A stretch of 64,000 nucleotides of DNA from a virus (Duplodnaviria; Caudoviricetes). The DNA lies in the IMG/VR virus record IMGVR_UViG_3300011434_000008, positions 5,770 through 69,769 of that record, one strand, 5' to 3'. The notes under the pieces are model-generated. The model ran no database searches, was not told the DNA's origin, and saw only the letters and a program-made list of their open reading frames with translations. Of this stretch, positions 2,362 to 51,262 are shown piece after piece (the stretch's first letter is position 1; every line of letters starts with the position of its first letter). The translations under genes were made by a program, and so were the position numbers.

Positions 2362-3337
2362 CGAAGAACAGCAAGCAGCAATCGACGCCGACAGCGGCAC
2401 ATGGCAGATACTCGCGGGACCCGGCAGCGGCAAGACTGCGGTCCTTGTCGAACGATACAAACGATTGGCGCGGTTTGCTCCCCTGGGCTTGACGTTCACG
2501 GTGAAAGCAGCGAACGAAATGAAGAGTCGGGCCGGGGGTGGAAACTTCCGAACCATCCAGAGCGCGGCCTACCAGATACTGAAGGGCTTTTCCGGCAGCG
2601 CGGGGTTCATAGCACCGCCTGTTGACCAGCTCGTGAAGAACGCCATTGACGTTCTCAATCCGGATCGACCTCGCTTCAAGTACATTATGGTTGACGAGGC
2701 CCAGGACTGTTCAGAGGACGACTGGGAATTTATCCGCCGCCTGTCTCCCAACATCTTCGCCGTGGGGGACGCCATGCAGTGCATCTACGGATTCCGTGGA
2801 TCACAACCCGACCTCTTCCTCAACATGGCTCAGAGGTTCCCCGGCACCGACACTCTGTACTTGGGCCGGAACTACCGTTCGACACAGCAGATCGTTGACT
2901 TCTGCAAGAAGATTGCGCCGGTCCGTGGAGCACTGCTAGAGAGACTCTGTTCAGAGAATGAACCCGGCGACCCCGTCGAGATTCTAAGCTTCGCTCACAA
3001 CGTTGAGGAAGCCGAGTTCGTGATCAGCTGCGCACAGAATCTACGACGTGACGGAAACGGCAGCAGTGTTGTTCTTGCCCGAACCAACCGTCAACTTGAA
3101 GTCTTCTCGAAACTTGAAGCTCCTGTGGACTTGGCACATTTGGAGCGGTCCACGATCCATGCGGCCAAGGGTAAAGAGTGGGACAATGTTTTCGTGATCG
3201 GTACACAGCAGGGCCTGCTGCCCTTCAGAGATGGCGACGTTGACGAGGAGAGCCGGATCATGTTCGTCGCCGCCAGTCGTGCGAAGAAGCGCTTGTTCTT
3301 GACTCGGTACGGTACGCCGTCTATACTGATCGGATAG
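2333..3337 (+). CDS. minimal UvrD/Rep-family SF1 helicase
   Basis: SF1 motifs in order: AGPGSGKT, LTFTVKAANEM, VDEAQD, VGDAMQCIYGFRG, RNYRS, STIHAAKGKEW, EESRIMFVAASRA. Only 334 aa. Confidence 0.9.
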   Translation: MIQIEGRVFNEEQQAAIDADSGTWQILAGPGSGKTAVLVERYKRLARFAPLGLTFTVKAANEMKSRAGGGNFRTIQSAAYQILKGFSGSAGFIAPPVDQLVKNAIDVLNPDRPRFKYIMVDEAQDCSEDDWEFIRRLSPNIFAVGDAMQCIYGFRGSQPDLFLNMAQRFPGTDTLYLGRNYRSTQQIVDFCKKIAPVRGALLERLCSENEPGDPVEILSFAHNVEEAEFVISCAQNLRRDGNGSSVVLARTNRQLEVFSKLEAPVDLAHLERSTIHAAKGKEWDNVFVIGTQQGLLPFRDGDVDEESRIMFVAASRAKKRLFLTRYGTPSILIG

Positions 3338-3350
3338 GACGGAGGTTCTC

Positions 3351-3569
3351 ATGGATGTACAGGCTACGTTTCACCACCGGTGCAAGAGGGGCCTTCACCC
3401 TTTCGAGGTAATCTACAGCTTGAGTCATTCCGATCAAGAGAGCACCGTTGTCAATTGGTGCTCGATCTGTGGAACCATCAGCGTGGATCTCGACATCGAT
3501 GGTCGGATCAAACCAGGAGCTGTTCAAAAAGCGACGCGACCTAAAATTCTGGAACAGTTGGGAAAATGA
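3351..3569 (+). CDS. hypothetical Cys/His protein
   Basis: 72-aa ORF with GGAGG RBS; HHRC...WCSICG. Confidence 0.6.
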   Translation: MDVQATFHHRCKRGLHPFEVIYSLSHSDQESTVVNWCSICGTISVDLDIDGRIKPGAVQKATRPKILEQLGK

Positions 3570-3570
3570 A

Positions 3571-3747
3571 ATGAATATCACCAAGACCAGCAAAGCAGGG
3601 GAGCGCGTCGCCCTACTGATCATCGCGCTGTTGGGAATTTTTGACGGTCTGGTTACCCTTTGCACTCTAACCTTGGTGGACTCGGACTACAGAGCCCACT
3701 TCCTGTTCTCGGACTTCTGCAACCGGCTTACAGGAGTTGACCATTGA
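3571..3747 (+). CDS. small membrane protein
   Basis: ATG at 3571; hydrophobic run VALLIIALLGIFDGLVTLCTLTLV. Confidence 0.5.
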   Translation: MNITKTSKAGERVALLIIALLGIFDGLVTLCTLTLVDSDYRAHFLFSDFCNRLTGVDH

Positions 3748-17363: not shown

Positions 17364-17803
17364 AATCGTACCATATCGACCCGGAAACGGACCAACGAAT
17401 TGAAAACATCTTCCAACATCATCCGCCATGCGGCAATCAGCTCGCCCGGTATAAGCAGCTCCGAGACGAAGCCAAGGCGTTCGCATACCTGATCGTCTCC
17501 AGCAGTCCAAAGAGTCGTGAGCAGGCGCTGGCCCTGACCCATCTCGAACAGGCGGTCTTCTTTGCTAACGCCGCCATCGCTCGGCACGAGAAGTTCGATC
17601 TGGAAATACAACAGCCCACTCTTCCAGTAGTCCAAAGAGTCGCGAGCAGTCGCTGTCGGCACGAGACGCCGGAGCCCGAAAAGCTCAACCGGTTCGCGGG
17701 GTGCTACGGCGGACACGATCCGAACGAGCTGCCGGATAGCGAAGAGGTCGGTGGAGATCCAACACTGCGCCGAGCGCGAGAACGAAACGTGATACCAGCG
17801 TAA
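17360..17803 (+). CDS. Acb2/Tad1-hairpin-like protein with C-terminal extension
   Basis: F.HH.P...Q..RY..LR..AK..A.LI....[21 protein letters not shown] pattern in aa 12-77. Confidence 0.55.
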
Positions 17804-17813
17804 GGGAGGCTTC

Positions 17814-18008
17814 ATGCCCGGACTGAAAGTAATAATCTCGGTGGTGGACGACAAGGGCGACATGCTCTTTCATCATGAGGATGACGCCCTTAAACCCACC
17901 TCCAAGAAGCTGGACCCCGAGAAGCCAATCGAGTTCGGGGAGTACAAGTTTTTCGGCTGCATATATCAACCGATTGTCATGTTGAAGAGCAAAGCAGGGG
18001 GGTTCTAA
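17814..18008 (+). CDS. hypothetical protein
   Basis: 64-aa ORF with GGGAGG RBS. Confidence 0.55.
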   Translation: MPGLKVIISVVDDKGDMLFHHEDDALKPTSKKLDPEKPIEFGEYKFFGCIYQPIVMLKSKAGGF

Positions 18009-18013
18009 GTTAC

Positions 18014-18334
18014 ATGATCCGCGTTGTCCACTGCAAGAAGGAACCCTACGACATCTACATCGGTCGCCCGTCAAAGTGGGGGAATCCGTTCTCTCACCTG
18101 TCGGGCTCCGATAACCTAGCACTGTTTCGCGTGTCTACCAGAGAAGAGGCCGTCAAGAGCTATGAGCACTGGATACTCAGCCAACCCTTGCTAGTAGCCG
18201 ATCTCCACGAACTGGTGGACAAGACTCTCGGTTGTTGGTGTGCTCCCAAAGCTTGCCACGGAGACATTCTCAAGCGATTGGCGGAGTCCTTGAAATACGC
18301 GCCAACACTGTTGTTCAAAAATAACGAACAGTGA
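18014..18334 (+). CDS. DUF4326-family protein
   Basis: VVHCKKEPYDIYIGRPSKWGNPF and LGCWCAPKACHGD.L. Confidence 0.85.
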   Translation: MIRVVHCKKEPYDIYIGRPSKWGNPFSHLSGSDNLALFRVSTREEAVKSYEHWILSQPLLVADLHELVDKTLGCWCAPKACHGDILKRLAESLKYAPTLLFKNNEQ

Positions 18335-18346
18335 GGAATTCTGAAC

Positions 18347-18589
18347 ATGGCCCTCTCGAAAAAACCCCTCAACCCTACCTACGAACAGCGAGTGAAGCGC
18401 CAAATGAAGCGCTATACCACGCTCCGAGCCAAAGGCTTCTCTCTGGCGCTAGAACTTACCACACTCAAGTCCTACAAACAGGGCCTGCTACTACAGATCG
18501 GGGACATCAACGTTTCCATTGATGCCCTCGACCGCATGATCCGTCGCGCTAGAACGGCGGCTGCTCAGGGAAAAGCTTCCGCAGCTTGA
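18347..18589 (+). CDS. small helical protein, last gene of the + arm
   Basis: 80-aa ORF; its 3' end overlaps the convergent giant gene. Confidence 0.6.
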   Translation: MALSKKPLNPTYEQRVKRQMKRYTTLRAKGFSLALELTTLKSYKQGLLLQIGDINVSIDALDRMIRRARTAAAQGKASAA

Positions 18590-21500
18590 GGTATGTTGCA
18601 TCCGTCTGCCTCTCCGCCGCCGAATACTCCGTAAACGCCTTCTTAAAGTACGATGTCTTCTTCTTCAGCATGAGCGGCGTCAGTGCTGCTTTCTCCGCGT
18701 TGTTCGCCTCTTCCCACACCAACAGAAAATCCGACATCGGCAAACGAGAGGACCGCAGGAACAGCTTCGCTATGCTGACCTCCAGGCCCTTCGTCTTGTT
18801 GATATTCCCCATGATGGTCTTGGCTTCCCTCGGACTGATAAGGTCCTGGTCAACCATGTCCCACAATTCCTGGGGTTGAATCGATCCCGAACGCAGACGA
18901 TCCTCGATTTCCAACTTGACCGTATGCTCTTTGAGTTTGTCTCGATCAACGGGACCGCTTTCGATACGATCCGCTGACAGCTCCATCGCCTTCTGCTGCG
19001 CTGCGGTCTTAGCTTGTAGGATCTGAGCACCGGCTGTCTGTAGACCAAGTTCTCCCCAGCTTCTGGTCGGTGCAAAGCCGCTCAGCTTTTGGGTGACGTT
19101 CTGCAGTGGCATCGGGATCACGGTGTTCGCAAGAAGATCCCACACCAAGTCTCTAGCAGGCAATCTACGCCCTTGGCTGTCCCGTCCCGTGTAGACGGTG
19201 GTGACGGTTCTCTCCAATGGAGAGGCCCGGTAACGCATGAACTTCAAGGGATCAGTGACCGAGTGAAGCATGTCGGTCGGAAGAGTACGCAGAGAAATGA
19301 GCTTGTCCCTACCTTCCTCGTCCTTATAGGCTACCCCGAAAGGGGCCTCGTAGTGCGGGTTGCCGGTGTTAAGCTGGTTCAGGACCCGTGCGGCAAGCCA
19401 CATCGCAATCGTTACTTTCGCGAGATCTTGCCGCACTACCTTGCCGTCCCCACCCATCGCCCGACTGATCGACCGCAATTCCGACTCCATCCAATCTGGT
19501 GCCAACGCTACTAATCTGAAGACATCTTGAGTGAGCAGAGATCTCCCCTCTCGTCTCAGGTTCAATCCGCCGAACCGGTTGTTGGTATCTGTAGCAGCCA
19601 ACTGTGCAACTTTGCTGTCACTGTACTCCGGATAGGTTTTCTTATATCGATTGTACAGGTGTTCCGCCGCCCGAGCCTTCAAGCTGGGGATGTACTTGTC
19701 GAACAGGAAACCCTCAAACCAATGAGAGATCTTCCCGGCAACTGGGATCATTCCCAACAACTTGCTGTGCTGATATCCAGACAGCATGCCTTCTTGGAAG
19801 GTGTCGCGAGGGCCGTAGTTCTTCATAGACAGCCCATGCTCCACGAGTTTTCCAAGAGTCGGATTAGTCCTAAGATCCCACCGCTCTACGCCGAAGGGAC
19901 TGACGCCGGTCATCAACGCTCGAAGACTTTCCTGAACCAAGTGGAAGGTATCGAACGACAGCAGGGTAGCTTTGGCTTCGGAGCCCGCCGTAAAGACAGG
20001 CTTGAACGCCTTGGCAAGAGGAGATGTAGTTTCAAGCTGACGCTTCACGTACTGGTATGCCTCGGGATGTACCTTCAGGTCCCCGCGTACCAGCACCGGG
20101 TTGCCGTTGGTATCCTGGGAGGCGAACTGCCAGCCCTCGAAGGAGGGGTGCTCGACTGAACGGTAGTCGTGCGTTGCCCAGGCGTAGTGCTCCGAACCTT
20201 TGGAGTTGGAACCCGAGGGTTTAACCTCACCATACTTCACGATCCGACCTTCCTTCACGAGCTTGTCAAGATCGCCGGTCCGACGCAGGCCGTCAACCAC
20301 CTTTTCCGCAATGCGGATAGATCGAACCTTATCAGCCTGTACGATAACCGCCTCGTTCTCACCGTCCGGTCCCTGAACGAGCTTGCCGGTGCCGGATAGC
20401 GCCACCATAGGCCGACCGTCAGAGGCCCTCGTTCCCTTGTCCTGGAGGCGCTCCAGGGTCTTCCGGGCTGCCAGTACGCGGTCAAAGGTGTTGCCGTTAC
20501 GTGCCGCCAAAGCGATGGGATCTGTGATGGCGAGCTTCCGCCCTAACAGCTGGCCCTCGATAGCGTGGTTGAACGTTCGGTGCCGAGCCATTGAGGTATT
20601 GACTGCAAAGGTTCCTGCACGAGCGTCCGCGAGCAGACGGTTCGCCGCTGGATTATCGGCGTCCTTCTCCCACAGATGGGTGACGTAGTTTTCCAGACCT
20701 TCCTCCAGGGCTCCCCCTGCGGAGGCGCGCTCGAAGTTTCCGTTGAAGTGCTTCTTGACATCACCGGCTAAAGCACGATGCTGATCTGTCAGGCTCTTCG
20801 GGTTGTAGGAGCGCAGCAAAGCATCGATTTCTTGGTCGTTGTAGTTTGCTTTGATGTGCTGCTGAGCCGCGAGTTCATGAAGGCGAGCTTCGCTTGTGTC
20901 GCGTGGCGCTTCTCCAAGCTCGCGCTGAATCTGAGGCGCGGGGCCGTCCACGTTGACGGAGTTCCGACGTGCGAGAGCGAGGCGTTCGTCCAGGGGGAAC
21001 GACTCGAAGGAAATAGTTTTGCCGGTGCCGCCGAGATTGAGAGCCTCACCCTTTGCGAAGTCCCAGGCAGCCTCTTGATCCAGACGCTTGCCAAATTCCT
21101 TTGCGGCCTCAGCGGTCTTCAACACGGTAGAGATGTTCAACTCTTTACCGTAGCCGCCAACAAACAGTTCTGGGTGCGCTTCTAGCAGAACTTTGTTTTG
21201 TTCTGCGAATGCTTCGATGTCTTTGATTGTGATATCGCGCTTGAATGTCTTGCGGCGCTCTGGAATAGCCTCGACAGCGAAGCCCTCGGACCTCGGAACA
21301 AACCCGGTGGCTGGATTCACCGTGAATCCTTCGGTGATCTTTACGTTCTGCAAAGCTCCCGCGAGCTTCGAATGCGGGGCCTCCAGCGGCACCTGCTTGG
21401 TGACGTAAACCAAACCTGCGCTGACTAGCTGGTCGAGCTGGGCTTGAGTGGGTTGTACGCCTTCATCTCCTGGGCGAACCCCTCCTCGTCGTGGTTCTTG

Positions 21501-24500
21501 AGACACTTCAGCAACACCAGGGCGTGCTTGACTTCCGCCCGGCGTTCCTTCGGCAAGCTGTTCAGGAACTGCTCTTCCTTCTGCGGCGCGTTCTGGATAG
21601 ATGTAGGCATCGAATTTCCCCCTCACATCGGGATGGATATTTCCAAGAATCTTTTCATACGCATGCTGCTCTTCGAGAGCATTCAGAGCTTCCCAAGTCA
21701 ACTTGACAAGGTGCTCTTCCTTAATCCCTTTCCCACGGAGTTGACCAGCCAACAACCTGGGCAACATCTCATTGACGATCTGAGCTTCACTTGAATAACT
21801 CCGCCCTTCGATACCGGCGATTCCCGAGATCTCGGTCAAAGCTTCATCGTAACCCGGCAGCTGAGACATAGCCTCGTGCGCGGCTTTCACCTCGACTTCC
21901 GACAGAGCGCCGTGAACATGCTCATGCAACAGTGTAGCAAAAGGATCGGGACCCGTCAACATCAAGAAGGTAAGGGGCTCGCCTTTCACGGGTTGTAGCG
22001 CAGCCGCCAGATCCTTGATATACTGGTTCGGGTGCCGTTCCATGAAGTTCACCATGCTCTCCGCAGCCTCTGCTCGCGCAGACGCCCCGTTGAGATTGGT
22101 GAGGGCACCTTTCAGCACTTTGTTCAGGGCCTCGAAGCCCCGGCCTGCCAGAACAAGGGTGTTCTCCCCGCGCTCGTTCTTGTAAAGTCCCACGACCTGC
22201 TGTCCAGTGTCTGGATCTTTGATTTGACCCACTTCGTTTCCAAGCCGATTGAGCTTGTCTGCCATGAACGGAGACAGGTTTTCCAGAGCCGTAGTATCGA
22301 TTCCAGCGAACTGCGCCAAAGGATGACCCTCGGCATCAATAGCGAAACCCCGAGGCTCGACGGAGCCCCACCCGCGAGGAATGGAGGCCGACTCACGCTG
22401 CATGTTCAGCCAATCTCTAAACTCCTGGGGATCTTCGAAATGATGTTGCTTCAGGCTACCCTTTTGGAAGGTGTCCAACTTGACCGGCTTGTCCCCTGGA
22501 GACAGGCGCTCGATGTGATCCACATCTTTAGCCCAAGTGGGGTTCAGCTTAGATGCTTCGATGAGCAGCCCGTCCTTCTCATTGCGGACGCGGACGTAGC
22601 CCTCCTCAAGCGCCCGGTCGAAGTCGGCCCGGCGTTGATCGACTCCCGCCTTCGGATCAGAGAAGTTTCGCTCGATCCATTGGCGGTGTGTTTCGTCAGT
22701 CGCAAGCTTGTGCAAGGCCCCCTTCGGGTCCATCATGTAGTTGCTGCCGGGTTCCAAAGGCTGCGCAGGCGCGTACTCTTTGCTGATGTTCTGACCGGCA
22801 CCCAAGATTTCCGACTTCATTTCTGGGGTGACGCCCACGGCGTGAACCTGGGCGGTCTGGATTTTGTCAGGCTTCAGCGCAGCGGGAATCTCCGTCTTAC
22901 CGACGCGGGCTCCCCACTTCTTTCCGTAGCCTCGATAGAACTCTCCGATCATCCCGAGTTCGCCGGTCTTCTGGCTGCCGTAGAAGCCCAGCATTCCTTT
23001 GCCGCCGATCTCGATGTCTTTACCTGATAGCTCGCGGAAATCAGGGTCCCACTTGGCGGGCTCGGCCTTCAGCAGCTTCTGAGAAAGATCCTTTCCAACG
23101 TAGTCTGGAAGCTTCTCCGGAGTCGTCCCTGCTTCGTGGAAGGACCATTTTCCATCCAGGGTGCGGGCCTGAAGAATGTTTTTCTTCGAATTATAGGCAA
23201 TCGTATCCACGACCTTCCGCAGATCCCAGCGGGTGTTCTGGTGCTCTCCCGAAGTCCAGGCAACTTGGTCGTATCCGTTTTCTGCGGCGTAGTGCAACGC
23301 CCGCTTCAGAAGGACGTGGAACCAATTCGCGGCGTAAGGAACCTTCGGGGCTTTGGCTGCTTCGTCCTCAAGCAAGCGCAGATATCCACGAGCCGCCCCC
23401 ACCTCATTTTTAGCGGCCTCTATCGCTGCGTAGTCTTGCCCACCCTTCGAGCTGCTCCAGCGTTGCCTCTCAAGCTCGACGGTTGGTAGGGGGTCGCGCC
23501 GCCCGACAGCCTCTCGAAACTCCGTCCAGAGTTTTCTCAAGGCCGCTTCAGGATCGGTGATCCCAGGTGTCTTCTCTTCCAAAAGAGCTTTCAGCTTATC
23601 CTCAGCTTTCTTTATAGCGGCGGGAGCCTCTTTGATAGCCTTCTCTCGAACTTCCGGAGAAGACTTCTTGAGCTGCTTGACTGCGTCGCCCTCTTGGACT
23701 TCCTGGAGAAACATCGTGCGCTTGCCATCGGGGGTAACGCGCTCATCGAAGCGCAGCCATCCCAGAACGTTGCCTTCCTTCGGATAATGTGTGCCCTTGT
23801 ACTCGGTCTCCAATTTGGCGGGCACACTTCGAACTACAAGCTCGCGGTACGAGTTCGGAACCGCACCGGCCTCGAAGGGCCGCAGATGAGTTTCGTATTG
23901 CGTCGGTGGTGCCTCTAACTTGGCTTTGATGGCCGCGTAGCGCTGGGTTTCCTCCGGCGTAAACTTCGGTGCGAAGTGACCTCGTTTGCGCTCCATCTTC
24001 TGGAACTGCGCCAGCCACATTTGGTCTTCCGGCGTCAGGACTTGCGCACCAGCACCCAGGAGTTTCTCAGAAACCGTTGCGGCGGTCTCTGAAATAAACT
24101 GCCTGATCTCGGATTTCGAAACGGTGCGCTTCGCGCCCGCTAGGAACTCAGGCAGACCCGATTCCTCCAGCTCCAGCTTGGTGACGCCGCGATTCGTGAG
24201 CCACTTCTCGACGCTCTTCGAACCGATGCGATCAGGCAACGTGACAACGGCTCTCTTCAGCGGCGAGAAGAAGCCCGACACACGAATTTCTGCGCGCAGA
24301 TCTGGATTCGCGGGATCGAACGTCCCTACATTTCCAGTTGCCGACTTCACTTGGGTTGGCTTGAAAGCAATGGCGTGGAAGGTTTCGGGACCCATCCCCT
24401 CCATACTGTGAAATTTCTCCGCCACCGTGTGATCGATGATTCCGTCGTACCCCATGTACTCGATGGCTCGGCGCACCAATTCTTTGCCGACGCCTTTGTT

Positions 24501-27500
24501 GCGCGAACTGGTTGCGGACCAGAGTTCCGCCGTCTTCTCCACAGCCTCGATTACATTGCTGGCGGGCCGACCTTCGAGGTCGTAGATATCTAACTTTCGC
24601 AGGGCGTCCACGTCGAAATCGTAGGTCTTGATCTGTGTCGAAGCTCGTCTGACGCCTGAAATAAGTTTGCGGACTTCGGCAAGGTCCCAGCGTGGTTCAG
24701 ATGCACCACCGATGTTCAAAGGATTTTTCAACGCGAGGTACGTCGGCAGCACCGCGCCGCCGTGCGGCATCATTTCTCGCTTGGCTTGCTCCAAGGCGGC
24801 AGCTTTGAGTACGCGATACGAGTCTGTCCCGTAGGAAACCGATTCATCCGGGTCCTCTCGGAGGGCTCTTTGAGATAAGATCTGATCGGCGCGGTCCTCC
24901 ATCTTGTTTTTCAAATCTGGGCCTAGCCCGGCGTAGTTGATGTTGACATCCTCGGGAGTATTGGTAAAGTAGTGACCTTGCCCCCAGTCACCCTCTACAT
25001 TTCCCTTGCGCTTAGAGAACTCGGTGAAATCCCGAACAGTCCCGTGGTACATCACGACAGGCTTACCCTCGGAATCGACGAGCTTCGACCCTGAAAACCA
25101 CCGCTTGAATTCTGGGGTTTCGGTTTTGGGCCGCGCAGCGGTTATCTCAGCGTCAATATCATCCGGCCCCCACAGGTCTTTGTAGGCCGCCTCGTAGGCT
25201 TGAGCATCAGCCCGCTCCGCTGCATCCCACAGCTTCTCAAACTGAGCGAGAGTCCTTGGTGTTCCATGCTTCTCGGACAAGGTGAACTCGTGGTATGGAG
25301 AATGGAAGCTCCCCGACTGCATGATATCCACACTAATCTTGTCGGTTCCGAGACCCTTCTGGACCCTTTTGAAATTGGCGATGGCGTCTTCTTTACCGTG
25401 GATTCCGTGATCGGTTCGACCAAGGGCGTGATAGTCCCCGATCTTCTTTCTCAGGTCGGCGTACTCTAAGATCTCGCTCCAAGAATATTTTTTCTGTGCT
25501 TCCTTCCCCAGACGAGCCTCCGCCCCGATCTCGCCTTCGAGCTGAGTTTTACTGAGTAGTTCTCTCCAACGCTTCGACTCCTCTACATTGAGGCCCCGAA
25601 CCGCGCCTTCCGGTGTCTCCGCTACCTCGCGCTCGAAGTCAAATCGCTCTCCGGGGAAATACTCGGAATACTCTCGGAAGCCCTCAAGCTTTTGTTGGGC
25701 CTCTCCAATTCGTTCTGCAGCCCGTCTAAGAACCTCAGAAGTAGCCGCTTCGTTTGCGCCTTCGACGGGTGCTGGTTTTGGGATAGCTTGGAGTCTTTTA
25801 TCGAGTTCATTGACGTTCACCCCCATTGCATGCAGTTTTGCCCTGACCTCCGGATCTTGGTGCATGAGGTCCGCGAAGTCTTTGGAGTATTTAGAATAGT
25901 CGTCCGGAACCATGAAGTCAAGAACTTCAGCGGGACGGTACTTCTCATGCTCGCCGGACCCCTTCCAACCGCTGGACTCGGACAAGGTTTTTGTGAAGCT
26001 CCAGATCGCCGCCTGTGCTTGCTTCGGACTCCAGCCCAGCTCCCGCGCCGCCAGCCGAGTCTGAACAGCCATCGCGTGATAGAACGAGGCTGTTGGCACC
26101 TTGCGCTCGTCAAATCCGAAGAACACACCCATCCAGGAGTCGAAGGTGCCGGACGGATCTTTGAAAATGTCCTGCAGGTTCCGAGCAAAATTCCCGACCT
26201 TGTAGTACATGTCCTTGTCGGCGGGTAGCATTGTCTCCCGGTTGATGGCCTTCACCGCGTTCGGTAGTTTGGCCCCCTGATTGACGAAAGGCGTGATCTT
26301 CTTTTTCTTCTGGAGCCGGATGATTTCTTCCGCCGTTGTTGGCGACCCGTTGTCCTTCCATTCCTTCCAGAAGGTCAGAGCTTCGCGCAGGTTCATGACT
26401 ACGGACTGCTGAGGCGAGGTCGCAGCCAGAATACCAGCCCACACATCCACATCCTCTGGCTTGAAGTATCCCGGAGCCAGCTCCCGCATAGCGTCGAAAG
26501 CCTTGATGGATCGGTCATACCAGTCACGTCCTTTACTACCGGCCTTAGCGGCAGCCACCAGCTCTTTGACTTCCGGAGCCTGTTGCAGGACGTTGAGAAA
26601 CACCTCGGCGCGCTTACCAACGGAGAGTTGCTTTATCTCCGTGGGCGTCAGTTCACTCAACGGACGCAGCGGCTGCAGAACATCGGGGACCTGATCGAGC
26701 TTCTGCTGTAGCATGCCGTAGAGATCACCGGCAAACTTTTTGACGACGTTCGGATCTGTGTGCCAGGACTTCTCCAGAATGTTTTCGTTGAAGTCGCCGT
26801 CCGCCGCCGTGGTCATCTTCTTCCCAAGCTCGACATCCTTATAGAGCGCGAGGTTGTAGACGTTGGCGTGACTGATGATGTCCCGGTTCTGCACCAAGAA
26901 GTCCATCGTGTGCTTATACGTCGCGGCGGTCTCACCTGGATAGCCGACGATGATGTTGGGGATCAGCGCAATTCCATTTCGACGCAGCTTGTCCGTACCT
27001 TGGTTGATGAGACGTTCGTTCGCAGGCTTGCGCATTTCCTTCAAGATGGGATCGTTGAAACTCTCGATGCCCAGCTCGACGTACTTTATGCCTGATGTCT
27101 TCAGCCACTCCTCGGGAATCTTGTTCAACTGCGCAGCGGTAGTCTGCACAGCGAACCCGTGAAACGCAGGATTTTCTTTCTTGATTTTCTCGTAGATGGC
27201 CGCGAGATCCTGATAGTTCTTGGCTTGACCAAAGGTCTTGTCGTTGACGTAGACCAGCTTGGCTCCTAGCTTCGCGATCTCGCCGACCTGCTGATTGACG
27301 ACTTCCTCGGGAGTCAGCTTCAGCTCGGTGTTCGCAATGACGCAGAAAGCACACTTATGCAGGCAACCCTGAGACAAGGTCAGACGAGGAATCGTGTCGG
27401 AGCCCTGGAAATGACGGTAATCGACGCCGGGCTTGAACTCCGCACCCATTGCCGACGCCATCGTCTCAAGACTGTCGTGCCAGTTCACATTCGGCTGATC

Positions 27501-34264: not shown

Positions 34265-36037
34265 TTAATTACTCCATATCCACCGAACGTTGAATTGACC
34301 GTAAGAGACTTGGGGAACCATGCGCGGTCGGCCTGATTTGATGCCGAGGATCGGTTGCAACTGAGGAACGATCACGGCGCGAACGCTGATAGTAAACGTT
34401 CCGTTTGTTTTGAAGTACGCCCGAACGTCCAAGTTCTCGTTCATGTGCTCGTCAACGGTGTGATCCGCTGTCGCGGTGCCACCATCCAGCCACGCTCGAA
34501 CCATAGACGTGGAGATGAATCCAGTTTGCCCTGACACGTCTACGATTGCTTCCGGCAATCCTGGGAACGCGCCGAAAGCGACGACCGCCACACCCGTAGT
34601 AAGACTGCCGGGGCTCCCCGATCCCGCAGGCCCTGTTGGTCCCGGAGGTCCAGGCGGACCCTCTTCCCCCTCTTCGCCATCGAAGCCGGGAGGTATTGCC
34701 GGGCTGCTGCTCCCAACCGTGACCTCTACTTCGTCGTCCACGGCGTCATCAACCGTCGTGATTCTAATATCCCGACCATTTACAAAATTGATTCGCTTCC
34801 TTTTATAGGTGAGAAAACTGCTGTTATCTCGAACCCACGGAACACCAACATCGAACCAAGCGCCGGTCGTAAAATTGTAGACAAACACTCGGTTTTGGCC
34901 AACCGCGCCGTTCACCACCATCGGAACGGTTGCACCCTGAGCAACGGGAACTCCGGAAGGAATTCCGGTGGCATACCCGAGGTAGAAAAAACCGTCTGTA
35001 TCTGTCGGACTTAGCGCAGAGCCGTGCGATAATACTACGCTACCCGCCCCGGTGATTTTAAGCCGATCAACAACCCCAAGACCGCCGTTCAACGATAGGG
35101 TAAAGCTTGTCGGAAAATTTCCTCCGGAAGCCGCCCCATCGGTCTTGATTGCTACCGCCCCTTGCTGTCCGTAGCCACCACTGTAGGCGTAGAATTTGGT
35201 CTCGGCAATCGTATCTGCGCTTCCGCAGTCTGTCGGAGCAGCGCTGGTTCCACGACTTCGAGACATACTTTGGAGCGCACTGGCGAAATCATCGTCGTGA
35301 TGATTTGAAATCGTACCGCCCCGTGCCCCGGTGTTCAACAAACTAGAAACATGAAGTTGTGAATCGTTAGTGCCCGAACCAATACCAAGCCGTTTGGTCG
35401 TGTGCTGCCAGCTAAGATCGGGCTCACCACCAAACACGCCTCCCTTGTTATACTGAACGTTGGTGTTCGCTCCTCCTGGGGCGGTAGGAGGACTAAACGA
35501 GTCCTCTGACTCTCCGTCTTCGCCATCAGCTCCTGGAGGACCCTGAGCGCCTGCGACTCCAGCGGTTCCGGTGGCTCCGACATTCCCTTGCGGACCTGGA
35601 GTTCCCTGGTCTCCTTCCTCGCCATCTTCACCAACTCCGGGCGGTCCCTGGAGACCAATTGAGCCCGTGTTACCTTGGGGTCCCTGATTTCCGGGAGGCC
35701 CTATGTCTCCTTGCTCGCCCTCTTCACCATCCGAACCCGGAGGTCCGGGCTGTCCCGCAGCGCCAGCGGCTCCCGCAGCCCCCGACTCGCCTGCGGCTCC
35801 AGGAGGCCCCTGTTCTCCCTCTTCCCCTCTCTCGCCTTCAGGTCCCGGTAGCGGTCCGCCCAGCGGATTGGCGCTGCCGATGATATCCCACCCGGTATCC
35901 GTCAGATTACGAACCTTGAGCGGATACGGTTGGGGGAAGGACGTGTCAACCCAGAAGACCCCCGCGCCGACTGCACCAGGATCGGTGGACTGAACATAGG
36001 CCGGTCGGATGTCTTGATGATTTGGGTATGCAGGCAT
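34265..36037 (-). CDS. collagen-like tail or head fibre protein
   Basis: Long Gly-X-Y tract (about aa 60-185), RLGIG/LHV fibre motif and a second short Gly-X-Y tract. Confidence 0.8.
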   Translation of the reverse strand: MPAYPNHQDIRPAYVQSTDPGAVGAGVFWVDTSFPQPYPLKVRNLTDTGWDIIGSANPLGGPLPGPEGERGEEGEQGPPGAAGESGAAGAAGAAGQPGPPGSDGEEGEQGDIGPPGNQGPQGNTGSIGLQGPPGVGEDGEEGDQGTPGPQGNVGATGTAGVAGAQGPPGADGEDGESEDSFSPPTAPGGANTNVQYNKGGVFGGEPDLSWQHTTKRLGIGSGTNDSQLHVSSLLNTGARGGTISNHHDDDFASALQSMSRSRGTSAAPTDCGSADTIAETKFYAYSGGYGQQGAVAIKTDGAASGGNFPTSFTLSLNGGLGVVDRLKITGAGSVVLSHGSALSPTDTDGFFYLGYATGIPSGVPVAQGATVPMVVNGAVGQNRVFVYNFTTGAWFDVGVPWVRDNSSFLTYKRKRINFVNGRDIRITTVDDAVDDEVEVTVGSSSPAIPPGFDGEEGEEGPPGPPGPTGPAGSGSPGSLTTGVAVVAFGAFPGLPEAIVDVSGQTGFISTSMVRAWLDGGTATADHTVDEHMNENLDVRAYFKTNGTFTISVRAVIVPQLQPILGIKSGRPRMVPQVSYGQFNVRWIWSN

Positions 36038-36043
36038 TTTGTT

Positions 36044-37066
36044 TTACAGGTACGCACAGATAGCGCGGATAATAGTTCGCCCGAAATCTCCCCGAAAATT
36101 CAGACTTGCGGGATCAGACGTGCCCCTCGCATTGAGGAAGTAGGAGGTCTTTGACGCAAGGATCAAGGAACTCTCTTTCCCAACCGTCGTAAACAGCTGC
36201 AAAGCCCCCGATGCGCCGCCAATTCCGACATCCGCCGTTAAAATCGGGTCACTCTCCGTTGTGCTGCCGGTCGAAAGAGTTGCCGACATAAGAATGAAAG
36301 TGTCTGAGGCTACGTCCACATTACAAGTGGCCTGCCAGAATACCCGCCACGCGCCAATATGAATCGCCAGAGTCAACGACCCAAGGTTGTACCACGTACC
36401 GTTCACCGGGCTTGCCTGCGTTTGGTTAGCCGTGTCCGTCAGACTCAGTGTCCACTTGAGGGGATCGAGCGGAAACTCTGCGGGTGCCTTGGCACGCGAG
36501 AAGAACGGCAAAGTGATCGCCGCGTTCGCTAGGTCGTAGTCCGTTCCACCGTAGATCGTAACCGTTGTATCGCCAGCCGCGAAAGCCGCAGCCGTGACAA
36601 TGAAATACTTTACGCCGGTCTGGGTCAGCTTGATCCGAGTTCCGGGCGTGTACTTCGTTGTCAAGTCGATCCCGGCAATCGTAAAGGTGAAAGTGGGGTC
36701 GTCGGCGCTGGCATACACCCATGTTTCTCCGGCTGCAACCCAACCATCCTCGGGCGCGCTAGCTCCCGGAGTCCCCGGCGATCCGGGCTGTCCCGGAGGT
36801 CCAGACTCACCATCTTCACCTGCTTCACCCCCGAACCCCGGAGGACCAATGGGTCCTGTCGCAACGCCACCACCACCCACTTCTTCCCAAAGCGTGTTCA
36901 GCGAGTTTCGAGCCTTCAGAACAAACGGTGGCACCCCCCCGGTCGTATCGATCCACAGCTTGTGGGCCGTGACGTTGTTATCCGGGTCCAAAGCAGGATC
37001 AGTCACCCCCACGAAAGCAGCGGGGTGGATCGCATTCGGTTCGGTTAGTTCAAAATGTTTTGCCAT
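36044..37066 (-). CDS. collagen-like fibre protein
   Basis: N-terminal domain shared with 34265-36037; short Gly-X-Y tract; beta-rich C-terminal domain. Confidence 0.75.
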   Translation of the reverse strand: MAKHFELTEPNAIHPAAFVGVTDPALDPDNNVTAHKLWIDTTGGVPPFVLKARNSLNTLWEEVGGGGVATGPIGPPGFGGEAGEDGESGPPGQPGSPGTPGASAPEDGWVAAGETWVYASADDPTFTFTIAGIDLTTKYTPGTRIKLTQTGVKYFIVTAAAFAAGDTTVTIYGGTDYDLANAAITLPFFSRAKAPAEFPLDPLKWTLSLTDTANQTQASPVNGTWYNLGSLTLAIHIGAWRVFWQATCNVDVASDTFILMSATLSTGSTTESDPILTADVGIGGASGALQLFTTVGKESSLILASKTSYFLNARGTSDPASLNFRGDFGRTIIRAICAYL

Positions 37067-40070: not shown

Positions 40071-43000
40071 TTAAGATCCGATTAGCAACCGGAACACGCC
40101 GGGCGATACTTCGATTGATTGAACGGCTGAGATCCCGCCGATGATTTCTGCAAACGGGCTCCACATCAACCCACTCTCCGGAGCCGCTGTGGGCGACAAC
40201 CGGTGCCAGCCTGTAGATCCGTCCGACAAATAAAGAGCTTTGTCTTGAGATCCGGCAACGTGCCAACTGACAAAAGCTGTACGAGAATCGAAACTCGCGT
40301 TGATCAGATTCCCAATGGGGAACCCAACTTCCGTGACGCCCGAACTCGGGTCCAACGTGATCAGTTGCCCATCTGCTGTAAACATGCAGATGATGGAACC
40401 CATGACAGACAGCGCGCTGTAGTTCAGAAGTCCAACGCCCTTCAAGAATGGAGCTGGGCTGAAGGTGGCTGTCGTTGTTCCGGTGATGATAAAAATGTCT
40501 GAAGCCGTAAAGACCAAAAGTCCGGAGGTTCCAATCGGCCACAACCGATGCACCTTGCTCGAAAACGTGAAGAAGTTCGACGGAGGAAACTGGGTGTAAC
40601 TCGAACCAATGCTGAACCCCGGAGGATTGCTGAACACCACAAGGTTACCAACGGAGCCCCACAGACGATTCAAATGGAAAGCCCAGTTTGTCGTGCCCCG
40701 AGGTGCTGGAGTGTTCTCCAGGTTTACCGCTGCGGTGATCAGCAGGTTCATCGTTGCGCCCGAAGCCGGTGGATCTGGACTGACATCCAGATAGTTCCAA
40801 CGACCTCCGACAACCGCCAGAGCACTGATCTCGGCAATCCAAAAGAACGTCGAGCCACCTTGCAGCGTTCGGTAGATCACGATGGTATCGTATTGCGGAT
40901 CGTCCGAATCAACGCCTGAAACTGAAACCGCCGCTCCCGGCACCGGAACCACGGGAGCACTGAAGGGAGACATATTGCTGACTTCGTTCGTAAAAGAATT
41001 TTTGAAGGCATACCCGTAGTACCACTTTCCGGGCACAGTGTCGGGTGTGACGCTGGTGCCGCCGCCACTGGGACCCGCGTTGATCCAGACGACGCTGCCA
41101 TCTGTGGTGGTTACACCTTGATCTGTCGCCCAGGTGGGCTCTGTTGCACCCGTGACTCCGGAAGTCACGACATTCTGGGTGTTACCGTTGGAGTCTACAA
41201 TAGACCCGTCGCCTGAGTGCGTCAGATCCGCAAGAGCGCCGGGCCACAACTTCAGGGTTCCGGTATTCTGCCAAGTCACGGTTCCATCTGTGACAAACTG
41301 ACCCGGAGAGTTTGACCACTGCACCGAATCAGACGGCGCATCAAGCGTGGTTCCTGCGGTGACTACGGTGAAGTAGCTCGAAAACGGCCCGATAGTCGTG
41401 AAGATCGGGGAGCCCGGCGTAATTCCACCTGGGCTGTATCCATCTCCGTAGCGAGTGTCACCAGGATAGCCAGGGTATCCGCTACCCGGACCGGCGTACC
41501 CTTCGTATCCAGTGATGACCTGAACATAGTAAGTGACCGCAACACGGTCTCCCAGCTGGTAAGCCTGATTCTGGACACGACCGACAAGCCCTTTGTTTGT
41601 CCAGATCACGCTTCCGTCCGCCGTGGTGCCACCGGGCGTGGTGTTCCACGCGGGCTGCACAGCGCCCGTGATGCCGACTTGCGTGACCTCTTGAATGTAG
41701 GGACCAGCGGTATTATCAACAACGGTGATCGGACCCGCGCCCGCCTGCGCAAAGTAAGCGTTCGCTACCCACACGGTGACCGGAGGAGGCAGCGCCGCTG
41801 GGGGCAGAAGCGCAACTTCCGGAGCCTGCTCAGGACCGGCTAGACCCATGTTCTGGAGATTCGATCCACGGTTCGCCCACTCCATACCTTCTTCGAAGAT
41901 CGAGGCTCCCGCCAAGTTGATGAACGGAGGAGTAACCAACCCCGTGGTTCCGATTCCCGCAGATCCCGGTACAGTGCTGATCTTCCCACCAACGTCTGTC
42001 ATGGTGGTATAGAACAGAAAGGCATTGCCCTGCGTAGGCGTTCCAGCGTCCGCAGCATGCACGAAGTCAATAGTGAAGTTCTGACTTGTGGTGGTGAGGA
42101 TCTTCGCGAACGTCGGAAACCCTGGATAGTTAGTCTGCAACGTCACGTACTGCCCGGCAGTGTACTGGTTCTTTGCCGAGACCGTAGCGATGTTGGCGGC
42201 GATTGAAATCTGTGTGATCGTCGCGGTGCCGTCTGGATAGTTGCCTCTGATGTGGCGTCGATCCCAGGTATTGTCAATCGTGAAGGACTTGCCGTTCAAG
42301 AAAGCAGAGATCGTGAACCCCGATAATACAACCGTCTGATTCGGAGAAAACGGATTGCTGTTCTGGTACAACGTGATCTTTCCGTTCTCGATCACCAGGA
42401 ATCCATACCCCTCTTGAGCCGTAGCTGCGCCTTCCGCCGTCACGCCTCGATCCGCAAAGGGAACATGGCAGTGGAACGACGAGCCGTTCGAGAAGGACAC
42501 CGGAAACTGCAGACCATTCAGCTCGGTCGCGGTAACCATCCCCGCGAACTTCACGACATCGCCGACATGAAAGTCATTGGTAGCTAAAACATCGAGAAGC
42601 CCGCTGCTGATTGTCAGCGAAGTGATCGACGTAGGAGCTTTGGCTGTATCAACGGCGTCGATAGCACCCGTTGCAGAAACGGTGGTGGGGAAATTCGTCC
42701 ACTCGAACACCACGAGCAAAGTAGTTGGATTGCAAGAAAACACGAAGCCACTTTTTCCGTTCAAAAAGGCCGTGGCTCCCGTGAATCCCGAGAATGTGAC
42801 TTTGGTGTGCGGCAGAAGAACCGCACCGAATGAAGTATTCGAGACAGCCGTCAGCACATTGCTGGCAATCGTTATCGAATCGATGTTGGTCAAAGAGCTG
42901 CCCGAGCTACCGACACACGCGAAGCCGGAATCCTGCGCATCAACCCAAACGCCGCCTGCATAGGTAATCGTGAGTTCTCGATCTCCGTAGTAGGAAACGA

Positions 43001-44051
43001 TGTTCTGAATCGATGCTTGAGCCGGGATCAATCCGTAGTCAGGATGACGGTAGGTCACCGTGAACGTGCAGGTGAGCAAGCCCACATCAAACGCGGACGT
43101 GAGAATAACCCCGCCGCCACCAAACGAAGAATCTTTAGTCCCCGTGAAAGAGACGCTCGAACCTACGGGGAACAAAAAATCCGGCTGGACTGGAAAGCTT
43201 CCCACGAACTGGACTACGACGGTCAAGACATTATCTGTGACTGTCTGGGTGCCGACCACGGTAGGATCATAGACCCGTTGGTACGGCGTCACTGCGATGT
43301 CCTGCACGAGCGGGCCTACGACACCCTGTCCGTTCAGCTCGGTGTGGTTAACCAAGTCGCTGAGTGACATCACGGAACCGGGAATGCCAATCGCGTTTCC
43401 GCCTCGACCCGCGCTGTAGTAGCGGACCTTGAGCGCACTGCCGGTTGAAGCCGTAGAGGCAACCGTGAAGAAAGAAGTTTCCCGGAACGTCACGAGATCT
43501 GCGAAGACTTGGATGTTCTGGTTCGGGTCGATGAAAAAGTCGTTGATGTTGAATGAAGATTGCGGAGCCCACGCATTCAACGACTGAATCCACTTCTTCT
43601 GAACGTCGCCGTCACCAAAATACAAAACGTTCCCAACACTCTGGAACCGCGCAGGATTGGGAAACGCTTTCGTGTAGATAATCTGCTTGGTGTCTGGACC
43701 CGTGGCGTCGTAGATGATCGAGATGGTATCCGCGATCACCTTGATCGATTCATCGGTCGTGCTGAACAACCGGAACGAATAGAAACTAAAGACCGGAGGA
43801 AAGTCTTGGTTGTTGTAGACACTTGTCCCTGGGCGTCTGATCAGCGTGAGCCGGTTGCTGACCTCCGTGTTAAGGCCGTCGATCAAGCAATCGTTGTTGG
43901 CCCCGTAGTATTTCTCGGTCTGCCAGCCAAGAGCGCCTGAGCGCAGGGGATTACGCTGAGTCCACAGTCCCTGGAAAAAGCGAGACGTGTAGATGGGAAC
44001 AAACTTGAGCGGCTTCCCCGGCGATCCCGCCATCGCGAGTTGATTTGGCAT
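40071..44051 (-). CDS. large tail nozzle/stabilisation protein with repeated inserted modules
   Basis: 1326 aa. Ends resemble P22 gp10/T7 gp12-type beta-propeller proteins (N.EVSNRLTLIRRPG; FHLNRLWGS). Middle carries repeated LNG-motif and TxxDGxVxW modules. Confidence 0.65.
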   Translation of the reverse strand: MPNQLAMAGSPGKPLKFVPIYTSRFFQGLWTQRNPLRSGALGWQTEKYYGANNDCLIDGLNTEVSNRLTLIRRPGTSVYNNQDFPPVFSFYSFRLFSTTDESIKVIADTISIIYDATGPDTKQIIYTKAFPNPARFQSVGNVLYFGDGDVQKKWIQSLNAWAPQSSFNINDFFIDPNQNIQVFADLVTFRETSFFTVASTASTGSALKVRYYSAGRGGNAIGIPGSVMSLSDLVNHTELNGQGVVGPLVQDIAVTPYQRVYDPTVVGTQTVTDNVLTVVVQFVGSFPVQPDFLFPVGSSVSFTGTKDSSFGGGGVILTSAFDVGLLTCTFTVTYRHPDYGLIPAQASIQNIVSYYGDRELTITYAGGVWVDAQDSGFACVGSSGSSLTNIDSITIASNVLTAVSNTSFGAVLLPHTKVTFSGFTGATAFLNGKSGFVFSCNPTTLLVVFEWTNFPTTVSATGAIDAVDTAKAPTSITSLTISSGLLDVLATNDFHVGDVVKFAGMVTATELNGLQFPVSFSNGSSFHCHVPFADRGVTAEGAATAQEGYGFLVIENGKITLYQNSNPFSPNQTVVLSGFTISAFLNGKSFTIDNTWDRRHIRGNYPDGTATITQISIAANIATVSAKNQYTAGQYVTLQTNYPGFPTFAKILTTTSQNFTIDFVHAADAGTPTQGNAFLFYTTMTDVGGKISTVPGSAGIGTTGLVTPPFINLAGASIFEEGMEWANRGSNLQNMGLAGPEQAPEVALLPPAALPPPVTVWVANAYFAQAGAGPITVVDNTAGPYIQEVTQVGITGAVQPAWNTTPGGTTADGSVIWTNKGLVGRVQNQAYQLGDRVAVTYYVQVITGYEGYAGPGSGYPGYPGDTRYGDGYSPGGITPGSPIFTTIGPFSSYFTVVTAGTTLDAPSDSVQWSNSPGQFVTDGTVTWQNTGTLKLWPGALADLTHSGDGSIVDSNGNTQNVVTSGVTGATEPTWATDQGVTTTDGSVVWINAGPSGGGTSVTPDTVPGKWYYGYAFKNSFTNEVSNMSPFSAPVVPVPGAAVSVSGVDSDDPQYDTIVIYRTLQGGSTFFWIAEISALAVVGGRWNYLDVSPDPPASGATMNLLITAAVNLENTPAPRGTTNWAFHLNRLWGSVGNLVVFSNPPGFSIGSSYTQFPPSNFFTFSSKVHRLWPIGTSGLLVFTASDIFIITGTTTATFSPAPFLKGVGLLNYSALSVMGSIICMFTADGQLITLDPSSGVTEVGFPIGNLINASFDSRTAFVSWHVAGSQDKALYLSDGSTGWHRLSPTAAPESGLMWSPFAEIIGGISAVQSIEVSPGVFRLLIGS

Positions 44052-48183: not shown

Positions 48184-48258
48184 TGGCTGTGGGAGAAGGA
48201 TTCGAACCTTCGATGGCTTGATTAACAGTCAAGTGCCTTACCACTTGGCTACCCCACA
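48184..48258 (-). tRNA. tRNA-Asn(GTT)
   Basis: Cloverleaf: TGTGGGG/TCCCACA acceptor, CTTGA-CTGTTAA-TCAAG anticodon arm, TTCGAAT T-loop, G73, encoded CCA; 75 nt. Confidence 0.92.
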
Positions 48259-48641: not shown

Positions 48642-48657
48642 TGGACCTCCGTCCTTA

Positions 48658-48692
48658 TCAAAGCAGAGAGGAGAGGTGTTTAACCCCTCCCC
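48658..48692 (-). terminator. terminator-like hairpin
   Basis: GGGGAGGGGT-TAAAC-ACCTCTCCTC 10-bp stem followed by a weak TCTGCTTTG tail. Confidence 0.4.
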
Positions 48693-48706
48693 CATGTGGA
48701 TCAAGC

Positions 48707-49405: not shown

Positions 49406-49479
49406 GACGTATCTCCATATACTACGTTGTGGTGTTTGAGCGTGAACTTCGTAGACCCTTGCGCGGGCACTGGGGGAAC

Positions 49480-50344: not shown

Positions 50345-50368
50345 CCTATCCTCGGAGTAAAACAAAAT

Positions 50369-50445: not shown

Positions 50446-50446
50446 G

Positions 50447-50815: not shown

Positions 50816-50837
50816 GATATCCTCCGTGTGAATTAGT

Positions 50838-51259: not shown

Positions 51260-51262
51260 AAA

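Follow-up and report, generated by a model that had tools for sequence, protein, structure and literature searches.

A 3,715-residue protein of a probable Acidobacteriota phage that carries a multi-enzyme cassette, including a radical SAM module, within a scaffold of an unnamed family

Polyvalent virion proteins are believed to be the earliest weapons of a phage to arrive in the cell, and almost none of them has been tested. Iyer et al. (2017, J Bacteriol 199:e00245-17; PMC5512222) defined the class and described its cargo of ADP-ribosyltransferase, zincin, ParB, methylase and helicase domains. One of the closest described systems is gp50 of coliphage N4 (3,500 amino acids, aa), in which the N-terminal region is required for injection and is followed by a central enzyme, an HExxH domain and a large helical C-terminal domain required for encapsidation; gp50 is packaged unprocessed (PMC5512222). 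Two smaller ejection proteins accompany it, and it is believed to pass like beads on a string (PMC13434306). In phage JC1, gp67 (196 aa), gp68 (510 aa) and gp69 (4,515 aa) were found in purified virions by mass spectrometry (PMC9144972), and gp47 of phi24B (2,811 aa), abundant in virions by mass spectrometry and invisible in the cryo-electron microscopy map, has been proposed to be an ejection protein (bioRxiv 10.64898/2026.04.10.717836). Bcep22 encodes gp74 (532 aa) and then gp75 (4,602 aa), the product of its last structural gene; both of these also count as virion proteins by mass spectrometry. Here we describe a gene in a 64,000-nucleotide (nt) stretch of viral DNA (the window; Caudoviricetes, positions 5,770 to 69,769 of IMG/VR virus record IMGVR_UViG_3300011434_000008), which makes up most of that 69.8-kb record (CheckV completeness 66%). 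The gene occupies 18549..29696 on the minus strand and encodes a protein of 3,715 aa, referred to below as the giant. We consider it probable (roughly 0.7) that the giant belongs to a large, as yet unnamed family of internal (ejection-type) phage proteins and is one of its cargo-loaded members. The constant parts are an N-terminal Gly/Ala-rich region (aa ~140-500) and a C-terminal core of ~790 aa, and the cassette of 2,430 aa between them carries, in order, a radical S-adenosylmethionine (SAM) module, DUF7178, an ART-PolyVal ADP-ribosyltransferase (ART), a GNAT-like domain and an HExxH domain.

A cassette between two conserved scaffold parts

The insertion architecture was uncovered by a viral-contig scan with the C-terminal 949 aa of the giant, which identified a cargo-free homologue of 1,219 aa (L003:8780-12436, on a 94.9-kb contig). 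This protein aligned to aa 2929-3715 of the giant with 41% identity (E 1e-177) and to aa 194-499 with 31% identity. Since both ends align to a protein that has no cargo, the ~2,430 residues between them (aa ~500-2928) are an insert. The N-terminal scaffold part (aa 140-500; 28197..29279, on the minus strand, as are all parts of the giant given below) is rich in Gly and Ala and contains the most hydrophobic stretch of the giant (aa 199-235). The C-terminal scaffold core (C-core; aa 2929-3715, 18549..20912), delimited by homology and by a structure model, is predicted to consist mainly of helices, with a subdomain rich in beta strands. Cargo-free homologues of 1,084-1,250 aa are present in related phage contigs with the same gene order.

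The extent of the family was determined in an exhaustive search of representative clusters with aa 2520-3715 as the query, which returned 1,871 clusters at E<=1e-3 and 762 at E<=1e-30. What the preliminary description of this DNA had recorded as a helical C-terminal region is a large unnamed scaffold family, and that description had overlooked that the cassette sits within a conserved scaffold of ~1,200 aa. Among the best 150 of the 1,871 matches the matched part nearly always reached the C-terminus, in proteins of 331-3,715 aa, and both conserved ends were present in 76 of 153 family proteins, with cargo of ~0 to 2,437 aa between them. The members form a graded series: the cargo-free L003 protein (1,219 aa), P0056 with the zincin-like (HExxH) domain only (1,505 aa), P0005 with DUF7178 and the zincin (2,139 aa), P0004 with radical SAM, DUF7178, two ARTs and the zincin (3,498 aa), and then the present giant. 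Other members carry DUF3293, ART-PolyVal, ddrB-ParB, an Eco57I-type methylase, SNF2 helicase or HATPase, and this list of cargo is a repertoire typical of polyvalent proteins. The commonest cargo of the family is DUF7178, which was found in 9 of 17 members. With the same scaffold and gene position and 0 to 2.4 kaa (thousand aa) of cargo, the family is a natural series from which the places that tolerate cargo can be read, and it hints at a general route, possibly open to engineering, by which phages load enzymes into the particle.

Two further sites of insertion were observed in relatives. One lies within the C-core at aa ~3160-3168 (window ~20193-20219), a surface loop in the model; in P0078, P0080, P0094 and P0100 the first ~240 core residues directly follow the N-terminal part and ~2 kaa are inserted before the rest of the core. 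A third site is at the end of the chain, where the scaffold genes of L007, L015 and L016 extend 50-265 aa past the usual C-terminus and have an HExxH motif there.

The AlphaFold2 (AF2) model of the C-core (aa ~2938-3715) had predicted local distance difference test (pLDDT) values of 70-95, and a search of solved structures with it gave no convincing relative. A Foldseek search of BFVD yielded 68 matches at E<=1e-3 (best 5e-13, TM-scores 0.2-0.5), and those with names were nearly all C-terminal pieces of "large polyvalent protein associated domain" (LPD) proteins; several were labelled LPD38 and others LT_GEWL, helicase, ART-PolyVal or zeta-toxin. By sequence, LPD38 (PF18857) had no Pfam match in the giant at E<=0.1, and hhalign of the C-core against LPD38-bearing C-termini gave a probability of 0.4% with a 4-sequence profile and of <7% with 42 sequences. 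PHROGs holds no family for the C-core, and hmmsearch with the C-core profile found no match in gp74, gp75 or gp67 of Bcep22 or in gp23-25 of phage Tunturi_3. When both halves of the giant were compared by tblastn with 50,697 phage genomes (INPHARED), no C-core match was detected; the matches were confined to the ART domain, a portion of the radical SAM module and a portion of the domain that follows the ART (domain X).

The reading frame runs without interruption from 29714 (TTG) or 29696 (ATG) to a stop codon at 18549-18551 in the six-frame listing of open reading frames (ORFs), and translation from the ATG gives 3,715 aa. A GGAG Shine-Dalgarno sequence lies 5-6 nt 5' of this ATG and the stop codon of the previous gene is 33 nt before it, from which we conclude that 3,715 aa is the right length. 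P0003, an orthologue of 3,730 aa from an independent assembly, is 83% identical across the N-terminal 1,360 aa and 55% and 73% identical across later blocks, and has the same architecture, so the ORF of the giant (P0001) is not a misassembly. The uninterrupted frame reported in the preliminary description was thereby confirmed, as were the composition and the motifs quoted in it. The first 100 residues include 21 Ala and 17 Pro, aa 201-400 contain 16-19 Gly per 100 residues, and the motif search placed CLHKCAFC at 778, YHGT at 1550, GHYFT at 1574, GYDGI at 1749, HEHVH at 2591, NNRFGGLN at 3372 and RLVALAPDW at 3394. Within the Pro/Ala-rich N-terminus (aa 1-140; 29277..29696), a 15-residue amphipathic motif, [ND][PA]L[ASD]EI..SLA.., is repeated three times (aa 8, 51 and 97) and may be a docking motif. 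At the other end, an 80-aa ORF on the plus strand (18347-18589) shares the final 41 nt of the gene for the giant, and the two gene ends converge; no terminator or promoter was found between them (17500-19000).

Cassette domains and the cysteine pattern

A Pfam scan of the whole giant detected Radical_SAM, DUF7178 and ART-PolyVal and nothing further at E<=0.1, and PHROGs matched unnamed families only, across the same three regions. The radical SAM module (aa ~600-1010; 26667..27899) consists of the Pfam core (PF04055, aa 774-934, 50.7 bits against a cut-off of 29.5, E 3e-13) and an N-terminal part that looks alpha/beta. Its CxxxCxxC triad (aa 778-785; 27342-27365) contains the only cysteines of the giant, and the triad and the radical SAM core motifs were invariant in 42 aligned homologues. 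The best NCBIfam match was the PhpK family (E 6e-20, 71 bits against a cut-off of 600); this and the other NCBIfam matches (PhpK-family, MiaB/RimO and other B12-class models) covered the core only and fell far below the cut-offs. When a profile of the 42 homologues was compared with the PDB, RimO/TM_1862 was matched at 5e-10, and AprD4 and Elp3 were matched as well, again in the core only. Profile positions 1-158, which precede the core and contain invariant residues, matched no solved chain by sequence; in Pfam, the alpha/beta-looking region before the core matched no family and no B12-binding family was found in the giant; in class B enzymes an N-terminal Rossmann-type domain binds cobalamin. 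The module is similar to MiaB/RimO, the class B enzymes (PhpK, HpnJ) and Elp3 in its CxxxCxxC and in NDKTFGQ, ELGIES and IVGYPGET-type motifs that align to the RimO core, and it has what looks like an alpha/beta domain ahead of the core. MiaB/RimO enzymes have three N-terminal Cys for a second cluster and a C-terminal TRAM domain; in the giant the 3,715 aa contain the three core cysteines only, Pfam gave no TRAM hit and the NCBIfam score was 54 bits against a cut-off of 251. Without extra cysteines in the giant, an auxiliary cluster of the methylthiotransferase type is impossible.

The module belongs to a clade of its own in phage contigs, with >100 homologous clusters. This clade is encoded at 65 IMG/VR loci, in 42 of them inside ORFs of at least 1,000 aa. 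Stand-alone homologues of ~380 aa (L076-L104) are found in numerous phage contigs, some of them 291-373 kb long, and in proteins of 1,100-1,950 aa (P0220-P0283) the module is often fused with NUDIX, GNAT, ParB_N, ART-PolyVal, PF26092 or PF18905. The pairing of radical SAM with GNAT recalls Elp3, itself among the solved-structure matches, and is a lead only. An obligate pairing of radical SAM with DUF7178 was considered and rejected, as DUF7178 was present in 12 of the 42 radical-SAM giants of the IMG/VR loci, at distances of 326-1,651 aa. Iyer et al. (PMC5512222) mention radical SAM 0 times, and in the literature searched, which is not proof of absence, no paper describes radical SAM as part of a virion protein or of a polyvalent one; the matching words in the N4 paper (PMC13434306) concern HExxH chemistry only. 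Radical SAM as a polyvalent cargo appears to be undescribed; its addition to the cargo list raises the question of how an iron-sulfur enzyme passes through the virion.

The cysteine content of the giant and its relatives bears on this question. At the frequency of the other 31 ORFs of the window (0.96%), ~36 Cys would be expected in the giant, which has 3 (binomial P 2e-12); at the lower frequency of the neighbouring structural genes, estimated from counts, ~13 would be expected. Exactly the triad was found in 11 of 14 other radical-SAM giants among the homologues, and one or two more cysteines in the remaining 3, while giants lacking the module (P0005, P0019 and P0023) had 0 Cys. In the loci fetched with the C-core alignment (30 from IMG/VR and 4 from GTDB), 27 of 33 complete scaffold-family genes encoded no Cys. 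Similarly, 18 of the 42 IMG/VR radical SAM ORFs of at least 1,000 aa had exactly 3 Cys and most of the others 4-6, compared with 3-12 Cys (median 8) in 20 complete stand-alone forms (<=549 aa, mostly ~380). A constraint that removes cysteines from the giants yet spares the iron-sulfur ligands argues that the radical SAM module is kept functional. If the module does ride in the capsid, the loss of Cys would suggest that the chain has to withstand oxidising conditions or unfolding on its way and that the cluster is then re-loaded by the new host. Large proteins encoded at the end of the structural module in cultured podoviruses are also Cys-free (0 Cys in gp74 and gp75, 4,602 aa, of Bcep22 and in gp24 and gp25 of Tunturi_3), and a dearth of cysteine might characterise ejected proteins in general.

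DUF7178 (aa 1040-1245; 25962..26579, by Pfam and phrog_3842) follows the radical SAM module and was matched by Pfam at aa 1048-1233 with 34.9 bits against a cut-off of 27 (E 1.8e-8); a PDB sequence search with it detected nothing. Where it stands with respect to the radical SAM module differs among giants; in others it is upstream or C-terminal. After a Glu-rich linker (20 Glu in aa 1301-1400) lies a small conserved segment (aa 1434-1532; 25101..25397) that is common to P0004, P0016 and P0037, and then the ART-PolyVal domain, which contains an insert (aa 1535-1805; 24282..25094). ART-PolyVal (PF18760) was matched from aa 1541 with 60.9 bits against 31.2 (E 3e-16), in two stretches covering profile positions 1-45 and 49-140. 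The active site of this family consists of H in strand 1, Y in strand 2 and D in strand 5 (PMC5512222, section 9), which correspond to H1551, Y1576 and D1751 in the giant. H1551 and D1751 were invariant in 18 of 18 aligned ART domains, and position 1576 was Y in 10 and F in 5. With the H-Y-D triad intact the domain looks active, as judged from its sequence; a last-strand Glu is not part of the ART-PolyVal site.

Domain X (aa 1806-2310; 22767..24281) was assigned from a structure model, in which a GNAT-type fold was matched at modest Z and a helical hairpin of ~100 aa is inserted. No GNAT profile was matched in Pfam and no clear Q/RxxGxG/A motif was seen in the alignment. The next candidate domain is zincin-like (aa 2470-2710; 21567..22289) and was recognised by its motif, HEHVH at 2591-2595 (21912-21926), with a conserved Glu at 2643. 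LHEHxH and E2643 (+48) were kept in each of the 5 homologues that span them, and in a model of the region (pLDDT 50-85) both lie in predicted helices. Neither Pfam nor a PDB sequence search gave a match for the HExxH region, and the fold search was swamped by another domain. ESM Atlas returned unnamed clusters only for domain X and the zincin region, and no close relatives of aa 1800-2768 were found in IMG/VR. The last segment before the C-core (aa 2769-2928; 20913..21392) is common to P0003, P0004 and P0055 and was modelled by AF2 at pLDDT 30-55; together with aa 2320-2460 it falls below pLDDT 55 to 60. The domains named in the preliminary description therefore fared differently. The radical SAM and ART assignments were upheld by Pfam scores above the cut-offs, the former also by the NCBIfam core matches and the RimO profile match and the latter by its triad. 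The GNAT-like domain had a fold match at modest Z and no profile match; the zincin candidate had a conserved motif and no profile match. The HhH-like domain would correspond to DUF7178, for which the PDB sequence search gave nothing. A SAM lyase, also mooted there, had no family match anywhere in the chain in Pfam, PHROGs or NCBIfam.

One could envisage that the enzyme domains are decayed passengers and that the cassette is inert bulk, which fills capsid volume or lengthens a conduit and catalyses nothing. The family signature of domain X, E[EV]QSDWHQ, reads EVQEGDA in the giant, several stretches of the cassette model poorly and the size of the cargo ranges freely from 0 to 2.4 kaa, all of which would fit such decay. 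Nevertheless, the three cluster cysteines are kept in most of the >50 otherwise Cys-poor giants that we examined, the radical SAM core motifs are invariant across the 42 aligned sequences, the His and Asp of the ART do not vary and HExxH and E2643 are conserved where covered. We therefore regard an inert cassette as distinctly improbable.

The cysteine pattern and the HExxH domain also bear on whether the cassette leaves the cell in which it is made. The giant could instead stay in the cytoplasm of the cell that makes it and serve there, late in infection, as a multi-enzyme protein that modifies, for instance, phage DNA, virion proteins or host metabolism ahead of lysis, with no delivery to the next host; alternatively, the cassette could be trimmed off by the HExxH domain and only the scaffold ends packaged. 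Radical SAM chemistry depends on SAM, an electron donor and a cluster in the reduced state, which are present in the cytoplasm and not in the virion. P1 DdrB is cleaved before packaging (PMC5512222), and the HExxH domain lies directly upstream of the C-core and is the sole cargo in P0056. However, the near-absence of Cys across the cassette, against a median of 8 in the stand-alone forms, suggests that the whole chain is under a constraint shared with virion giants such as Bcep22 gp75. As for trimming, no recurring junction peptide (FSP, [FA]S[VLM][RKN]) was found in the giant, the lone FSP at aa 1810 being the conserved start of domain X; moreover, peptides of the giant protein JC1 gp69 are present in purified virions and N4 gp50 is packaged whole. 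These alternatives, taken together, seem unlikely to us, and self-cleavage by the HExxH domain, which the preliminary description had suggested, may or may not accompany delivery.

Gene order, host and the proposed route of delivery

The giant gene is the last of a minus-strand block of virion genes, in which a family scan identified the portal (54919-57012), the major head protein (52051-53037) and the tail fibres (34265-37066). Four genes on the same strand precede it. The nearest (29729..31336) encodes a Cys-free protein of 535 aa with a Gly-rich hydrophobic segment and a coiled coil; it is 27% identical to L003:7000-8775 (E 2e-33), had no match in the 50,697 phage genomes, and has a homologue just upstream of the scaffold gene in ~27 of the 34 fetched loci. 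Before it is a gene for ~130 aa (31338..31730), whose homologues (~130-175 aa, mostly 130-140) occupy the same position in ~30 loci. The ORF listed here, of 201 aa from TTG 31943, probably starts at ATG 31730, which gives 130 aa; this ATG and the stop codon of the 258-aa gene before it have a few bases in common. The 258-aa gene (31732-32508) and the 138-aa gene (32511-32927) had no family matches and were placed by conserved order. The order 138-258-~130-535-scaffold gene recurs in ~30 loci, at the end of the structural module, and the scaffold gene alone varies in length across the syntenic loci (1,084-3,340 aa). Downstream, a gene on the opposite strand mostly follows; recA lies there in the 7 loci where it was detected and in the window.

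A very long protein with helical ends and Gly-rich segments, encoded within a structural block, could also be a tape measure or another purely structural tail protein. This seems to us scarcely credible: the gene is last in the block, after the tail-fibre genes, and not between tail chaperones and distal tail genes as in a long-tailed phage, no sheath, tube or tail-chaperone families were found in the window, and syntenic relatives vary 3.5-fold in length while enzyme domains score above curated cut-offs. In addition, judged by its portal, the closest phage in culture is Tunturi_3, a podovirus whose tail measures 21 nm. Tunturi_3 (97.6 kb) infects Tunturiibacter, and no other cultured phage had a portal like the one here (33% identity). 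All four GTDB matches were to metagenome-assembled genomes (MAGs) of Acidobacteriota, and the closest protein fragments are labelled Acidobacteria. The MAGs and the Tunturi_3 portal together suggest that this is probably a short-tailed phage of Acidobacteriota, of ~95-105 kb. Acidobacteriota abound in soil and next to nothing is known of the biology of their phages, among which the system described here would be placed.

Two other features of the block were observed. Five tRNA genes (Asn, Trp, Ala, Thr and Tyr; 48184-51352, minus strand) lie between the head and tail genes, and a protein of 1,326 aa (40071-44051, minus strand) has a weak head-decoration/Ig-like match (phrog_20658) and parallels in position Tunturi_3 gp19, a 1,136-aa 'head decoration protein'.

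Based on the fold matches of the C-core and on the layout that the giant shares with virion giants of cultured phages, we infer on good grounds that the giant is packaged and ejected. The scaffold parts would take the chain into the capsid of the short-tailed Acidobacteriota phage, and at infection the chain would pass out by way of the tail in a loosely folded, beads-on-a-string state like the one proposed for N4 gp50. The scaffold, with its 535-aa and 130-aa partners, may help to form a conduit across the cell envelope. The enzyme beads could then refold on the cytoplasmic side and modify host targets, by ADP-ribosylation and a radical SAM reaction, before any phage gene is expressed. Which host molecules would be targeted is conjectural at this stage, and an anti-defence role is conceivable.

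Several observations weigh against the giant as an ejected, cargo-loaded scaffold protein. The case for the giant, or for any scaffold-family member, being in a virion is one of analogy, and INPHARED and PHROGs contain no family member from a cultured phage. The link of the C-core to the LPD38 giants proven to be in virions is at the level of fold only, with the TM-scores of 0.2-0.5 given above, and phmmer comparison of 27 window ORFs with 21 Bcep22 proteins revealed no similarity. Within the cassette, domain X lost the QSDWHQ signature that ~30 relatives keep, and the zincin-like domain is a candidate by its motif. Finally, an oxygen-sensitive [4Fe-4S] enzyme is an awkward cargo for the virion of an aerobic soil phage with a tail channel of 3-4 nm. 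That the radical SAM module is a working iron-sulfur enzyme, carried in the capsid and injected with the DNA, is accordingly a more tentative proposal than that of the scaffold family, and one we make with some doubt. If true, it would be the first radical-chemistry effector delivered by a virion, and its substrate, whether host nucleic acid, protein, SAM itself or a defence signal, would establish early host takeover of a new kind.

Comparison with known systems

The giant has at least two disparate domains in one chain and its gene lies next to virion genes, as is the case for polyvalent proteins (PMC5512222). The preliminary description had classed it as a polyvalent multi-enzyme protein at the end of a short block of ejection-type genes, and the domains found, ART-PolyVal in particular, and the conserved five-gene block agree with that assignment. 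Like polyvalent proteins it joins unrelated enzymes in one giant chain, an HExxH domain and an ART-PolyVal with H-Y-D among them; its gene accompanies those for the portal, the terminase and virion proteins; and it belongs to a family in which cargo is swapped (methylase, SNF2, ddrB-ParB and ART). It differs from them in that the scaffold ends match no LPD of Pfam and the cargo is held inside a scaffold, not in a free string.

The 'DarB-like' giants of Bcep22-like and 933W-like podoviruses (Bcep22 gp75, JC1 gp69 and phi24B gp47) are similar in genetic position, each being encoded by the last gene of the virion block after genes for small and ~510-530-aa virion proteins. JC1 gp69 and phi24B gp47 have a C-terminal LPD38 module, a fold family that the model of the C-core appears to match. 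Their enzymatic content is different: they carry lytic transglycosylase, methylase, helicase, LPD1/3/5 or MuF-C domains and no radical SAM, and their hosts are Proteobacteria, in contrast to the probable Acidobacteriota host here. Pfam did not detect in the giant the methyltransferase and SNF2/DExH helicase of the P1 DarB/Bcep22 gp75 type, although some members of the scaffold family do carry an Eco57I-type methylase and SNF2.

The order of parts in the giant is comparable to that in N4 gp50, where an HExxH domain is likewise followed by a large helical C-terminal domain. The central enzyme of gp50 is an RNA polymerase, and no match in sequence or fold was found between the two C-terminal domains; the N4 structure 9pnt appeared in the fold search only at E 0.73, for a model other than the C-core. 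The ejection proteins of T7 (gp14/15/16) and P22 (gp7/20/16) are also internal proteins of short-tailed phages encoded by consecutive genes, and T7 gp16 carries a transglycosylase, while LT_GEWL proteins are among the BFVD matches of the C-core. The likeness to the T7 and P22 proteins is one of layout and not of demonstrated homology, and the gene order relative to the tail fibres is unlike that of T7. For the ART bead, T4 Alt, an ADP-ribosyltransferase carried in the capsid and injected, is a functional model; Alt is a single-domain enzyme of the R-S-E clade, whereas the ART of the giant has H-Y-D. Taken together, the class of polyvalent giants is already known, and the giant is a variant of it, with a cassette inserted into a conserved scaffold, in a phage lineage that probably infects Acidobacteriota, and with a radical SAM cargo that appears to be undescribed.

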